DNA of 64,000 nucleotides from a virus (Duplodnaviria > Caudoviricetes): positions 1 through 64,000 of IMG/VR virus record IMGVR_UViG_3300037067_003527, one strand, 5' to 3'. Below the pieces are notes generated by a model. It was given only the letters and a program-made list of their open reading frames with translations, did not search any database and was not told the DNA's origin. Of this stretch, positions 18,600 through 24,387 are shown in pieces; the stretch's first letter is position 1; the number at the start of each line of letters is the position of its first letter. Position numbers and translations under genes: made by a program.

Positions 18600-19865
18600 A
18601 TGAGTAAACAATTAGAACCATCATTTAATGATGTTCATTTAATTGAATATGAAGACCCTATACAATCAGGTGTAACTGGTGTAGATTCTATACCTAATAT
18701 TCAATTAGGAAATAGAAGTATATATATAAAAGATTTAAAATCATATATTTATATTGGTATTGGTGAACCATCTGGTAATTTAGGAACAATATTTATTTCT
18801 GGATATGATAATTATTTTTATATTGATTCAACATGTAATTGTATATGGAAATATAACGGTACAATATGGGAACAAATATCTAAAGAATTTGAATTAAATG
18901 TTTCTGGTTTAAAAATAAATATAAACGGAAACGATTCTATATATACTAATTTAACATATGATACAGATAGAATAACAGTAACTGATTATTATGGAAAACT
19001 TTGCAACTTTAAAGGTAATAAATTATATTTTGAAAAAGCTAATGCAAATACAGATGTTATTACTCTTATAAACAATAATGAATTAATAATTAATTGTAAA
19101 GTAATACAACAATCTCATAATAGTAATGGTTATTATAAAGTAAATTCATATGGACCAGATACAGGTACATATCAAAATTCAATATCAATAATGTGGGATG
19201 AAACAAATGGTTGGTGGTCTTTAAAAGATGATGATGGTAATTATTATTCAATACAAGCAACATTTATAATAAATGGAAAAGAAGTAGAAACAGAAAGTAC
19301 TAGATTTATTTCATCTCAATCTGAATTAGATACTGCATTAGAAAATACATATCAAACTGAAGATGGGTTATGGTTTATATATGGTGATACTTTTAATATT
19401 ACTTCATATATTATAGTTAATGCTAAAAGAAATATTATTATACACCCATCTGCTACTCTTCATATAGATGATTCATTTATAGGTGGTGGTATAGGAAACG
19501 GTATTATTGAATTATCAGATAATGCTGAATTAATTATTAATGGAAATATAACAGGTAATAATGGAAGTATATATGATAATTTAATTTATTTAAATGATAA
19601 TTGTACATTAACATCTTCTATTATTATTAATGATGGTACATTTCCAAATATAATATATAATTCATCTACAACATCAACTGTTGTATCAAATAATATATTA
19701 GATAGTAATGTTGTATGTTCAAATGCTATGTATACTGGGTTACAACAATCTATTATAAATAATGATATAAATAGTATAAATGGTGTATTATTTAATACGT
19801 GTACTGATGTTATTTTAGATTGTAGAAAAGATAAAATATCTACATTATCAACTGGAGATTATTAA
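18600..19865 (+). CDS. Tail fibre / tailspike protein 1
   Basis: Fibre-anchor N-terminus (EDPIQSG..G...P..QLGNRSIYIK); beta-helix-like C-terminal half. Confidence 0.75.
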   Translation: MSKQLEPSFNDVHLIEYEDPIQSGVTGVDSIPNIQLGNRSIYIKDLKSYIYIGIGEPSGNLGTIFISGYDNYFYIDSTCNCIWKYNGTIWEQISKEFELNVSGLKININGNDSIYTNLTYDTDRITVTDYYGKLCNFKGNKLYFEKANANTDVITLINNNELIINCKVIQQSHNSNGYYKVNSYGPDTGTYQNSISIMWDETNGWWSLKDDDGNYYSIQATFIINGKEVETESTRFISSQSELDTALENTYQTEDGLWFIYGDTFNITSYIIVNAKRNIIIHPSATLHIDDSFIGGGIGNGIIELSDNAELIINGNITGNNGSIYDNLIYLNDNCTLTSSIIINDGTFPNIIYNSSTTSTVVSNNILDSNVVCSNAMYTGLQQSIINNDINSINGVLFNTCTDVILDCRKDKISTLSTGDY

Positions 19866-20158
19866 TGACATTTAAAAAAATATTACAAGAATTATTTGTA
19901 GATAATGTTGAAACTACAAATGAAAAAGAAATGTTACGTTTATCGATTATAGCTGAATTAGATGCTGCTAATTTATATGAAAAATTTTCAAAACAAACTA
20001 ATAATATATCAATTAAAAAAGTTATGCTTGATATTGCTAAAGAAGAAAAAGTACATGCTGGTGAATTCAGAGCATTATTACAAGCAATAGATAAAGATGC
20101 AATACAAACAGAAATACAAGGTAAAAATGAAGTTGATGAATTAATAAATAGGACATAA
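19865..20158 (+). CDS. Ferritin-like (encapsulin-cargo / short rubrerythrin type) protein with capsid-targeting-like N-terminus
   Basis: LRLSIIAELDAANLYE...LDIAKEEKVHAGEF di-iron motifs; MTFKKILQE start. Confidence 0.85.
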   Translation: MTFKKILQELFVDNVETTNEKEMLRLSIIAELDAANLYEKFSKQTNNISIKKVMLDIAKEEKVHAGEFRALLQAIDKDAIQTEIQGKNEVDELINRT

Positions 20159-20160
20159 GC

Positions 20161-23109
20161 ATGATTACAAATTATACACCAGTTGATAATACATTTAATA
20201 CTGAAGTATATATATTTAGTAGTGAAGATTTTGTATTAGGTGAATTAGATGGTACTTCTAATATACCATTAAAACAAATAGCAGAAAATACTGCATATCT
20301 TAAACGGTTTAAAGGAAGAATAATTTATGGAACGGGCACACCATCCACAGGTTCTATTCCTACTGATATGGTATTAGATAGTTATTCTATTTATAATGTA
20401 TTATATTTAGATGAAACAACTGGTTCATTTTGGAAATTAACTTCAATATCTCCAATTACTTGGTCAAACATTACTAAATCTACAGTATTAAATGTTGCTG
20501 GGTTAAAAATTAATAATGCTGGTAATGATGCAGAATATTTTGAATTTAAATATAATTCAACAACCAATACTTTAGAATTATTAGATAGTTATGGAAATTA
20601 TGGAAATGTAAAAGTAGGTACTGTTTATTATAATACTATAGATTCTAGAACAATTACAGATATTGAATTTGTTAATATAGTTGATTCTGAATTATTATTA
20701 TTAGCTAATATAGAAGATGAATCTCAAAATCAAGATGCTTTTTTTAGCGTTAAACGTCTAGAAGATATATCAGAAATAACTGTTACTTCTTTTTATAGAA
20801 AAGATGAATCCGTTTATGTTGATGATACATGGTATGTTTCTGTATCATCAGGTACTGTATTAAGTGATTATATATCTGATGGAGATTATGTTGAAATTCA
20901 AGGAATTGATGAGGAATCAGGTGAAGAAATTAATGGCTATTATAAAGTATCATATGTTAATGACGCTTTAAATTATTTTAGAACATCGTCTGATTTTAGG
21001 TCTGCTTTTGCATTCAATGATTATACTGGATTATCTGGTACTATGAGTAAAGATAATTCCGCACAAATAAGATGGAATGCAACAGATGTTAGATGGGAAT
21101 TAAAAACAAGAAACGGTAATTTACTTCCTTTACAAATATCAAATTTTATAAATGAATCTGGTATACCTGTTGGATTTATAGCAGATAGAGTTATTAGTAC
21201 AACATCTCAATTTGATGCTTTATTTAATAATGTAGTAACTGGTGAAGATGTTTGTTATTTAAGAAAACCTGAAACTAATTATACTGAAGATATTGAAAAT
21301 GAATTTATATATATTAAACCAAATTCAGATGTGGGTTCAAATGGTGAATATACTTTAAATAATATGGTTCAAATAATGGGTAGTAATATAAAAATTGAAA
21401 CCACAAAAGGAACCAAAATAAATACCGTGTCAGGTGCTGGGTTTAGAATGAGAAATGAAGCACCAATGATAGTTAATCCAAATGTTTCATATACATCTAC
21501 AATAATTGAAATACAAGCAGAAAATGCTAGATTAAATTCTGAAGCAGGAAACCGTGAAGGTGATTTAGTTGTTATGGAAACGGGAGATACTATAACATTA
21601 TTTTCTGAAACATCAAACGTAAATGGAAAATATCATACTACATCTATAGATAAAAGATTTTCTAGTGATATAGATGGAAATTATGATCAAATTACAATAG
21701 GTGGAACTACTAGTGATCAACATGTTGTAAAATATGAAGATGAATTATTTCATACATATGTTGATAGTGGATTAATATATGTAAGAAAATATGTATATAA
21801 TAATACAACAAAACAATATGATATAGATATATTATTAGGATCATCTACATCTGGTACATTTTCACATCCTAAATTATTTGTTGATAATATAAACGTTTAC
21901 TTATGTTATTTTGATGGAAGTAATAGTATTAGATTTGTTTACTTTGATAAAAATACAGCAGGAAGTGCTAATATATCAACGTCAAATCAAGCTATAAATA
22001 GTTCAGGTACATATGATTACCCTAAATTTATAGTAAGTAGTGGATATGCATATGTATTAGGATATTCTTCAACTCCAAATATTACATTATATAAATATAA
22101 TATTTATACACATGCTGTATCATCTATTTCATCTAATGTTGGTGATGTTAATAACTATGTTATATGTGATAATGATGATGATGTTGTATTTATTACTAGT
22201 TTATCTGGTACATATAATATACGTTCTGTAAATAAATCCACTTTTACTACAGTTGTAAATCATGATAGTATATCAGCTGGTAATTTTTATGAAATGTATT
22301 TAATACCGTATAGCACCTCAATATATGGGTGTTATAGAGATACTTCATTTAATATTCATTTTATTTCATTTACAACAGCATATAGTAGTTTTAATGATGA
22401 TACATTAACTAGTACTATAGCATCTTCTCCTATTTCAATGGTTATAAATACTGAAAATACATATCCAGAAGAAGATACTGTTGAAATAATAATTTCATAT
22501 AGTAATGGTTTAGGAATACTACTTACTCGTATTACAAATGATTATGGAAATACGTGGATATCAACTTCAACTGATTGTAGTTTTTTAATGGGTGAAAATT
22601 ATATAAGTACATTACAATATGGAAACGCAAAAGATGATTATATATATTTAATAATTGAAAATGGAGTATTTAATATAACATATTTATTAAAAATACATAG
22701 AGTATTTTATATACAATTAGCATCATCAATACCAACATTAAGTTTAAGTGATTTAATAGTATCACATGATTATTTAGAAAATATTGAATTAAAATTAAAT
22801 ATAGATAATAGTACAAATTCAAATATATATGATATTAGATTGTCTAATTCTATATATAGTTTATTTAATTGTATTATAGAAGGATCTTTTTTTACAGTAT
22901 TAGGAGAACAAACATATTCAAATACAATTAAAATTATAGATGAATTAACAACAGAAACATATATAGATACTGTATTACATTCATCATTTAGAGACTGTAA
23001 TGTACATAGTACATATTCTGGTGGTACCTTAAATAATTGTTTAAATTGTAATTTTATTGGATTTATAAATAATGAAGCAAATATTATAAACGGTGATATA
23101 AATGAATAG
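20161..23109 (+). CDS. Tail fibre / tailspike protein 2 (N-terminus paralogous to 18600)
   Basis: EDFVLGELDGTSNIPLKQIAENTAYLK anchor; shared LNV(A/S)GLKIN..GND; propeller-like region with a DYGNTW Asp-box. Confidence 0.78.
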   Translation: MITNYTPVDNTFNTEVYIFSSEDFVLGELDGTSNIPLKQIAENTAYLKRFKGRIIYGTGTPSTGSIPTDMVLDSYSIYNVLYLDETTGSFWKLTSISPITWSNITKSTVLNVAGLKINNAGNDAEYFEFKYNSTTNTLELLDSYGNYGNVKVGTVYYNTIDSRTITDIEFVNIVDSELLLLANIEDESQNQDAFFSVKRLEDISEITVTSFYRKDESVYVDDTWYVSVSSGTVLSDYISDGDYVEIQGIDEESGEEINGYYKVSYVNDALNYFRTSSDFRSAFAFNDYTGLSGTMSKDNSAQIRWNATDVRWELKTRNGNLLPLQISNFINESGIPVGFIADRVISTTSQFDALFNNVVTGEDVCYLRKPETNYTEDIENEFIYIKPNSDVGSNGEYTLNNMVQIMGSNIKIETTKGTKINTVSGAGFRMRNEAPMIVNPNVSYTSTIIEIQAENARLNSEAGNREGDLVVMETGDTITLFSETSNVNGKYHTTSIDKRFSSDIDGNYDQITIGGTTSDQHVVKYEDELFHTYVDSGLIYVRKYVYNNTTKQYDIDILLGSSTSGTFSHPKLFVDNINVYLCYFDGSNSIRFVYFDKNTAGSANISTSNQAINSSGTYDYPKFIVSSGYAYVLGYSSTPNITLYKYNIYTHAVSSISSNVGDVNNYVICDNDDDVVFITSLSGTYNIRSVNKSTFTTVVNHDSISAGNFYEMYLIPYSTSIYGCYRDTSFNIHFISFTTAYSSFNDDTLTSTIASSPISMVINTENTYPEEDTVEIIISYSNGLGILLTRITNDYGNTWISTSTDCSFLMGENYISTLQYGNAKDDYIYLIIENGVFNITYLLKIHRVFYIQLASSIPTLSLSDLIVSHDYLENIELKLNIDNSTNSNIYDIRLSNSIYSLFNCIIEGSFFTVLGEQTYSNTIKIIDELTTETYIDTVLHSSFRDCNVHSTYSGGTLNNCLNCNFIGFINNEANIINGDINE

Positions 23110-23674
23110 AGGATTTAAACAATTTATAAAAGAAATGTATAAACCATTTACTACTCTTATACAAGGAAAAACATCAAAAGAATGGTATGAAGAATATACC
23201 GTTCCAAATAATTGGTGGGTTCATGGAAGAAAAGGTTCTCAAATTTTAAATAACGATTATCCAACAGAATGTACTAAAAAATGGAAAATAGCAGAACAAT
23301 ATTCTGGTAATAATGGTTCAATGTGGATGATAACATATAAAAATAAATCTTCAATTATAGATGTAACTAATACAACAACACAAAATAAAATTTATAAACA
23401 ATTTATTGATGATTATGATGATAATAATTTAAACTATGGTGATTTATATGATATAGAAAAATATGAAAGAATAGAATATAACGAAGTAGAAAGAAAGAAA
23501 AGATTTATAGAATCATTAAATCCGCATGATATTGTTGATAGTGCTGGGTTTTGGGATAATATGGATTTTATTACGTGGTTTTATGATAGATTTACAAAAG
23601 GATTTATTATAACACATGATGGAGTAGTAGTAATAGATTTAGATTCATGTATTGCTATAAAGGTTGAAATATGA
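23102..23674 (+). CDS. Putative ADP-ribosyltransferase-fold protein (His-Tyr type) with capsid-targeting-like N-terminus
   Basis: VHG...T....AEQY...DG.VVI pattern; MNRGFKQFIKE start. Confidence 0.5.
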   Translation: MNRGFKQFIKEMYKPFTTLIQGKTSKEWYEEYTVPNNWWVHGRKGSQILNNDYPTECTKKWKIAEQYSGNNGSMWMITYKNKSSIIDVTNTTTQNKIYKQFIDDYDDNNLNYGDLYDIEKYERIEYNEVERKKRFIESLNPHDIVDSAGFWDNMDFITWFYDRFTKGFIITHDGVVVIDLDSCIAIKVEI

Positions 23675-24387
23675 TTACTTTCAAACAATTTTTAATTGAA
23701 GAATTAAATTCAAAATCAACAAAACAAGAAATAGTTGATGTTATTAAAAAAGAATTGTTTGGTTCATTTGATGGAAAAGAAAAAGATACGTATCCTGAAG
23801 AGGTTGAATTATTTTCATATTTAGAACAATGGATAGGACAAGGTGGAGAATCAGATAATCTTTTTAAAATATATGAATTATTTAAAATATTATATAAGGT
23901 AAAAGACACATATCCTCAAAAATTAAAACCAAATTTATCATCATATATATTATATAGAGGTGTTTATTTAGATAACAACATACTAAATATAGAAAATATT
24001 AAAAATAGTATATACAATAAAAATACTAAATGCTTAGAATTTAAAAATACAATTAAATATATATGTGAATATGAATTTGAATCGTGGTCTACTAAAATTA
24101 ATTCTGTTAAATTATTTTTAAAAGACATCCATAAATCGTATCCTTTTTATAAAATTCCTATTATACTCAAATATGATTTTAAATCAGATAAAGATTTATT
24201 ATTTAATCCTAATTTTATGAATAAAGTTAATAGAAATATAGGCATAGATTTTTATGAATATGAAGTAATTAGATTAAGAAATTTGAAAACACCTATTTTA
24301 TGTAATTGGTATATACCTGTATATTTATTAAATAATGTTGTTAATATTAATATTAAACAAGAAATACTTAAAAAACAGAGTGAATAA
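23671..24387 (+). CDS. Putative R-S-E ADP-ribosyltransferase (Alt/Mod-like) with capsid-targeting-like N-terminus
   Basis: LYRGV...ESWST...EYEVI triad; MITFKQFLIE start. Confidence 0.7.
   Translation: MITFKQFLIEELNSKSTKQEIVDVIKKELFGSFDGKEKDTYPEEVELFSYLEQWIGQGGESDNLFKIYELFKILYKVKDTYPQKLKPNLSSYILYRGVYLDNNILNIENIKNSIYNKNTKCLEFKNTIKYICEYEFESWSTKINSVKLFLKDIHKSYPFYKIPIILKYDFKSDKDLLFNPNFMNKVNRNIGIDFYEYEVIRLRNLKTPILCNWYIPVYLLNNVVNINIKQEILKKQSE

Follow-up and report, generated by a model that had tools for sequence, protein, structure and literature searches.

Encapsulins and phage capsids are both built on the HK97 fold, and the route that leads from one to the other is debated. The Family 1 encapsulin of P. 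furiosus carries a half-ferritin, EncFtn, in association with such a shell. The internal proteins of phage T4 (IPI, IPII, IPIII, and Alt) reach the head interior by another device, a short N-terminal leader that ends in L/I-x-E (PMC9026906, PMC3012670). The T4 capsid targeting sequence comprises residues 1 to 10 of IPIII, of which residues 4 and 7 dominate targeting and residues 8 and 10 govern processing, and cleavage follows L/I-x-E through gp21, a protease counted in the conserved head core of T4-type phages (PMC9026906). Further head proteins are fused to portal or MuF domains, but a survey of such polyvalent proteins mentions neither ferritin nor rubrerythrin domains, nor fusion architectures that include them (PMC5512222). 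Cargo-like proteins that are coassembled in procapsids were raised as an open possibility in 2026 (PMC13669383).

EncFtn and T4-type head targeting are each already known; no description of a phage-encoded EncFtn was found in the literature searched. Here, we describe a gene of an uncultured phage that encodes an EncFtn-type half-ferritin preceded by a leader with T4 spacing, and we compare it with its cellular and viral relatives.

Genomic context of the phage ferritin gene

The DNA comes from an IMG/VR viral record 118,766 bp long (23% G+C; 41% complete according to CheckV), which derives from an uncultured phage in a groundwater metagenome run; the first 64,000 nucleotides of this record form the window analyzed here. 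The contig encodes T4-type sheath, tube, baseplate hub, and gp6-like wedge proteins, together with a gp20-type portal, gp2, gp4, gp32, and RegA. This gene set and the portal, which is about 37% identical to cyanophage gp20, identify the phage as a distant member of the T4 superfamily. No gene for a capsid protein (PF07068), prohead protease (PF03420), or scaffold was detected on the contig, which represents about 41% of the genome; the protease and its specificity are therefore assumed from kinship.

Short contigs with 0 to 1 differences from positions 18600 to 24387 were present in two landfill metagenomes from separate studies, indicating that the phage is not restricted to one sample. Isolated phages yielded no DNA match for a 7-kb region of the contig, and tblastn searches of 50,697 isolated-phage records with the window ferritin and with a second viral ferritin (L031) yielded no match. 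The T4 late-promoter motif TATAAATA was uninformative, with 61 matches against 61 expected, and no tRNA genes were found in the 64-kb window. At 953 to 1810 (−) and at genome positions 104028 to 104897 (+), the contig has a pair of paralogs, each about 285 aa long and with near-identical N termini, which lie about 100 kb apart in opposite orientation.

The initial annotation had recognized a 97-aa ferritin-like ORF with both half-site motifs and the N terminus MTFKKILQE. This ORF is present at exactly 19865 to 20158 (+), and the sequence agrees with both motifs and with the N terminus (Table 1). The ATG at its start shares bases with the stop codon of the preceding ORF and has a ribosome-binding-like site 7 nt before it, both of which support the long start that includes the leader. 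The downstream ORF begins 3 nt past the ferritin stop. This spacing and the overlapping start place the gene within a compact series of virion genes that share its orientation. The two flanking ORFs are paralogous (E = 4e-18) and lie downstream of the gp6-like baseplate wedge gene.

Table 1. Positions of the ferritin gene, its parts, and neighboring ORFs in the window
Feature	Position	Strand	Basis or remark
421-aa ORF, putative tail appendage	18600-19865	+	Paralog of the downstream 982-aa ORF
GGAG, ribosome-binding-like site	19854-19857	+	Direct sequence reading
97-aa ORF, EncFtn-type half-ferritin gene	19865-20158	+
T4-CTS-like leader, codons 1-9, ending L-x-E	19865-19891	+	Spacing of F3, I6, L7, E9
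Flexible linker, codons 10-19	19892-19921	+	AlphaFold model and viral homolog comparison
EncFtn core, three helices, codons 20-95	19922-20149	+	Homology, invariance, model, Foldseek
Ferroxidase residue E31	19955-19957	+
Ferroxidase residue Y38	19976-19978	+
Ferroxidase residue E61	20045-20047	+
Ferroxidase residue H64	20054-20056	+
982-aa ORF	20161-23109	+	N-terminal region of about 250 aa in common with the 421-aa ORF
190-aa ORF, ferritin-type leader, unrelated body	23102-23674	+	Pattern match
238-aa orphan ORF, leader in exact T4 register	23671-24387	+	Pattern match; ART-like by ESM Atlas

Sequence and fold identify the protein as an EncFtn

Pfam Rubrerythrin was the sole family model to pass its cutoff with the 97-aa protein (2.4e-11). 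NCBIfam EncB_fam (3e-16) and TIGR04535 (1.6e-12) matched under their curated cutoffs, and no EncFtn model reached its threshold score (PF22277, 21.2 against 27; NF058679, 59.5 against 90; TIGR04535, 47.4 against 125). Among solved structures, the closest were 5n5e, the EncFtn domain of P. furiosus, and 2e0z, the PfV fusion in which that domain is joined to an HK97-fold encapsulin shell (E about 3e-17). An AlphaFold model built on an alignment of 65 sequences reached a pLDDT of 89.6 overall and of 96 to 99 for the helices at residues 20 to 44, 48 to 75, and 77 to 95; residues 3 to 10 form a low-confidence short helix and residues 11 to 19 a flexible linker. The model and Foldseek both reveal the half-ferritin architecture of two helices followed by a short C-terminal helix. 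The best Foldseek match was again 5n5e, with an rmsd of 0.9 A across 76 columns; EncC, EncB, and the EncFtn proteins of R. rubrum and H. ochraceum came next, so that the top matches were all encapsulated ferritins.

The residues of the ferroxidase center are equally well preserved. E31, Y38, E60, E61, and H64 do not vary among 65 sequences of viral and cellular origin, and those assigned to the ferroxidase center (E31, Y38, E61, and H64) align to P. furiosus EncFtn. Foldseek matches also included R. rubrum mutants at the equivalent positions E32, E62, and H65. Prediction of a homodimer with iron scored 0.40, against a mark of 0.42, and is given no weight here. The matches to 5n5e and 2e0z, the EncFtn-only top Foldseek matches, and the invariant center residues all bear out the original identification of the protein as a ferritin.

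The phage protein thus shares with P. furiosus EncFtn the half-ferritin fold, a core identity of about 46 to 55%, and the Glu/Glu/His set with its nearby Tyr; association with an HK97-fold shell would be a further likeness. It differs from P. furiosus EncFtn and other EncFtn proteins in its scores, which fall under the EncFtn cutoffs, in the leader that stands in place of the conserved cellular N-terminal arm, and in its lack of any encapsulin address. The chain stops two residues past the last helix, leaving no C-terminal encapsulin localization sequence and no fused shell, and a search for an encapsulin shell gene (PF04454) across the 118.8-kb contig (about 41% complete) returned no match.

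Cellular relatives are free-standing and have a different N terminus

A scan of GTDB genomes recovered at least 575 cellular relatives of the ferritin. The best 80 of these were almost all about 93 residues long and began with a different conserved N terminus of about 28 residues. The outcome that the initial annotation had named as refuting its idea, a common N terminus in cellular homologs, was thus not observed among them. One exception among the 80 (L166) comes from a 2.6-kb MAG-binned fragment that looks viral. Free-standing half-ferritins of Bathyarchaeia, Woesearchaeota, Methanofastidiosum, Desulfobacterota, Nitrospirota, and CPR share 50 to 60% core identity with the phage protein, equal it in length, and likewise have no C-terminal extension; in contrast to the phage copy with its leader, they have the conserved cellular N terminus and housekeeping or DNA-repair surroundings.

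At nine cellular loci we inspected the directly downstream gene, and at one of them the upstream gene as well. None of the nine had an adjoining shell gene. The adjoining genes encode alanine racemase, MGMT, DNA ligase (twice), a tRNA synthetase, PFOR, isochorismatase, a Rad50-like ATPase, and a protein of no family. The name "encapsulin-cargo-type" that the initial annotation had given the protein therefore fits its fold and sequence but not its missing C-terminal address, nor the sampled nearest cellular relatives with no adjoining shell genes. As a separate observation, cellular half-ferritins often adjoin DNA-repair genes (L106, L110, L134, and others), namely those for MGMT, ATP-dependent DNA ligase, and Rad50-like ATPase, which hints at a DNA-protection role for the nonencapsulated cellular form.

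The leader follows the T4 rule and recurs in unrelated ORFs

Residues F3, I6, L7, and E9 of the ferritin are spaced as residues 4, 7, 8, and 10 of T4 IPIII, with an offset of one residue. From T4 genetics, independently of this genome, we set a pattern (an aromatic residue, any two residues, a hydrophobic residue, L or I, any residue, and E, starting at residues 2 to 6) and derived its expectation from its internal frequency within the same proteins. The pattern opens 6 of the 167 ORFs of the contig against 0.53 expected (P about 2e-5), an enrichment to be read with the caveat that AT-rich genomes promote N termini rich in K, F, I, L, and E. The six are the ferritin and the ORFs at 23102, 23671, 71396, 111841, and 117285; beyond the leader these proteins are unrelated, and three of the ORFs lie within 4.5 kb. 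The strict pattern was also enriched in a related viral record of 81 kb, G033 (5 against 0.21 expected; P about 3e-6), and was not significant in another, G028 (2 against 0.81 expected). Only 5 of 56 stand-alone viral ferritins carry it, and none of the closest 80 of the at least 575 cellular homologs does. A looser leader pattern, defined post hoc after inspection of the data, agrees with the strict one. Pfam and PHROGs searches with ten further leader-bearing proteins returned no family.

The leader is peculiar to phage ferritins and common to unrelated ORFs of the same phage. Its hydrophobic spacing and its L/I-x-E end are those of T4 IPI, IPII, IPIII, and Alt, and the T4 internal proteins likewise share their leader among unrelated, often orphan proteins of one phage. 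The capsid-targeting leader that the initial annotation proposed is supported by its T4 spacing, its enrichment over chance, and its absence from the 80 cellular homologs; packaging into the head and cleavage would be its putative consequences. T4 internal proteins are small, basic, and directed against restriction, whereas the cargo here would be a metalloenzyme from a family of cellular nanocompartments.

The 238-aa ORF that carries the leader in exact T4 register is an orphan, a search of 5.8 billion proteins having returned no homolog. In the ESM Atlas it falls close to clusters of phage ADP-ribosyltransferases of the Mod/Alt type (feature score, 0.91; TM, 0.44 to 0.52). As a lead only, it may be a packaged ADP-ribosyltransferase resembling Alt, which in T4 is packaged and cleaved by gp21 (PMC9026906).

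Codons 10 to 19 belong to a phage-specific motif that follows L-x-E in a subfamily of viral homologs, and in longer viral homologs the motif L-x-E-L-F-V sits 30 to 70 residues inside the protein, behind a variable extension that often has a further leader-like start. Given this internal position, L-x-E-L-F-V could belong to the mature protein instead of a removable tag. Alternatively, the short ferritin of the contig may have retained just the last L-x-E site of the longer homologs.

Viral relatives link the ferritin domain to the head interior

A scan of IMG/VR detected the ferritin domain in 82 viral contigs, many of 100 to 466 kb, none of which is an isolated phage. Of 50 related ferritin-bearing viral records, 13 encode a gp21-type protease, and four related records (those of L006, L057, L063, and L067) are classified as proviruses. 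One of the protease-bearing records is G033, whose gp21-type protease (E = 5e-32) is accompanied by 11 ORFs with one leader type, its own ferritin included. Five of these form a tandem cluster (L091:3083-6961) and six lie elsewhere in the record; none matched a Pfam family. By this arrangement, the cluster resembles a hypervariable internal-protein locus of the T4 type. Separately, the gp21-like protease matches of records G021, G028, and G029 each contain one in-frame TGA, which could mean that this phage group uses recoding, some programmed event, or a different genetic code.

In other viral relatives, the ferritin is a module of long portal, Mu-F, or NUDIX proteins. The fusions join it to Phage_portal_3 (L023); to a portal and topoisomerase IB (L030:5980-8634); to an intein-bearing portal, DUF7218, and Mu-F (L037:907-5568); to DUF2213 (L050); and, in two cases, to NUDIX and DUF6496 (L047:8204-10249 and L053:8840-11614). 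These architectures are those of proteins delivered with DNA, as in the polyvalent portal- and MuF-fused head proteins (PMC5512222), whereas the ferritin of the window stands alone. A 393-aa protein (L016:9992-11170) has an N-terminal ferritin, behind which a high-potential iron-sulfur protein domain is weakly matched (E = 5.6e-4, below cutoff). Stand-alone ferritins also occur within the head module of non-T4 phages, in the gene orders portal, ferritin, and Mu-F-like gene (L060); terminase, portal, several small ORFs, ferritin, two ORFs, and Mu-F-like gene (L065); and portal, 104-aa ORF, and ferritin (L055). The ferritin domain is tied to head-interior proteins in other phages.

A tree of 133 ferritin cores, based on too few alignment columns, places the window protein in a polytomy from which neither donor nor direction of transfer can be named.

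Discussion

The likeliest reading of this locus, and one that we consider fairly probable, is a ferroxidase inside the head that is loaded by means of a T4-type leader. Four independent lines give it partial support: the T4 spacing of the leader and its recurrence in unrelated ORFs, the 11 leaders of G033 alongside its gp21-type protease, the different N terminus of the 80 closest cellular homologs, and the fusion or adjacency of the domain to portal and Mu-F-like proteins in other phages. The location of the gene among co-oriented virion genes and the gp20-type portal of the contig also speak for it. Packaging, cleavage, enzyme activity, and biological role are what we infer for the ferritin, as follows. 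As an EncFtn-type half-ferritin, the protein would be a di-iron ferroxidase with its active site between two subunits, which the phage would address to the interior of its own head and not to an encapsulin. Leader residues 1 to 9 would bind the prohead scaffolding core, as the T4 capsid targeting sequence does, and a gp21-type prohead protease would cut after L7-Q8-E9, leaving a mature enzyme of 88 residues among the packaged DNA. There it could oxidize Fe(II) and so shield the genome from Fenton damage. Alternatively, it may be ejected with the DNA and act at an early stage of infection on iron or peroxide. Several observations speak against head targeting: the contig (about 41% complete) has no prohead protease, scaffold, or capsid gene, the leader is one residue shorter than that of T4, its second targeting position has Ile where T4 has Phe, L-x-E-L-F-V is internal in longer viral homologs, AT-rich genomes promote such N termini, the enrichment in G028 is not significant, only 5 of 56 stand-alone viral ferritins fit the strict pattern, and the gene is surrounded by tail genes and not by head genes.

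It is considerably less probable, albeit a reading with some weight, that the protein is an auxiliary half-ferritin of the cytoplasm that reduces stress from free Fe(II) or peroxide during replication and whose N terminus is no targeting signal. The closest cellular homologs are free-standing proteins of about 93 aa among housekeeping and DNA-repair genes, with no adjoining shell gene at the nine loci inspected, and so the fold works with no compartment. The groundwater and landfill habitats, where Fe(II) is presumably abundant, fit such a role, as does a contig (about 41% complete) that carries no capsid, scaffold, or prohead protease gene. However, a cytoplasmic ferritin leaves unexplained why the conserved cellular N terminus has been exchanged for leaders common to unrelated phage ORFs, why the domain is recurrently fused or adjacent to portal and Mu-F-like proteins, and why the gene is part of a block of late structural genes.

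We judge it unlikely that the ferritin works with the flanking tail appendages, for instance as an assembly factor or iron donor. The tip of the T4 long tail fiber binds iron ions, and the gene lies between, and translationally near, two paralogous large ORFs downstream of baseplate genes. The initial annotation had called these ORFs fiber genes; the ferritin does lie between two large paralogous ORFs, but their fiber identity found no family match, and no His-x-His iron-binding repeats appeared on reading the flanking proteins. Moreover, the ferritin neighbors in other phages include portal and Mu-F-like genes, an ATPase, and others, but never this pair.

That the domain is packaged but serves inside the head in a structural or scaffolding capacity and not as an enzyme is very improbable: the fusions to portal and scaffold-associated proteins and the helical hairpins common to encapsulin cargo and phage scaffolds (PMC13669383, 2026) would suit it, but the ferroxidase-center residues are invariant in 65 sequences, which indicates selection on catalysis.

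Beyond this phage, we raise with considerable doubt the idea that several lineages of tailed phages routinely carry EncFtn as internal capsid cargo, by means of a CTS-like leader or of fusion to portal, Mu-F, or scaffold proteins, with the capsid serving as an iron-handling compartment. Because the viral copies vary more than the closest cellular sequences, which form a shallow cluster, the ferritin cargo of encapsulins may descend from phage internal proteins.

If a head-internal ferritin is borne out, it would give the first example from nature of a true virus head with encapsulin-type enzyme cargo, and it would make the relation between capsids and encapsulins testable. It would also give phages a route to guard their packaged DNA against damage caused by iron, or to bring an enzyme that handles iron into the host. 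The short leader itself could function as a tag for packaging in T4-like phages other than T4.
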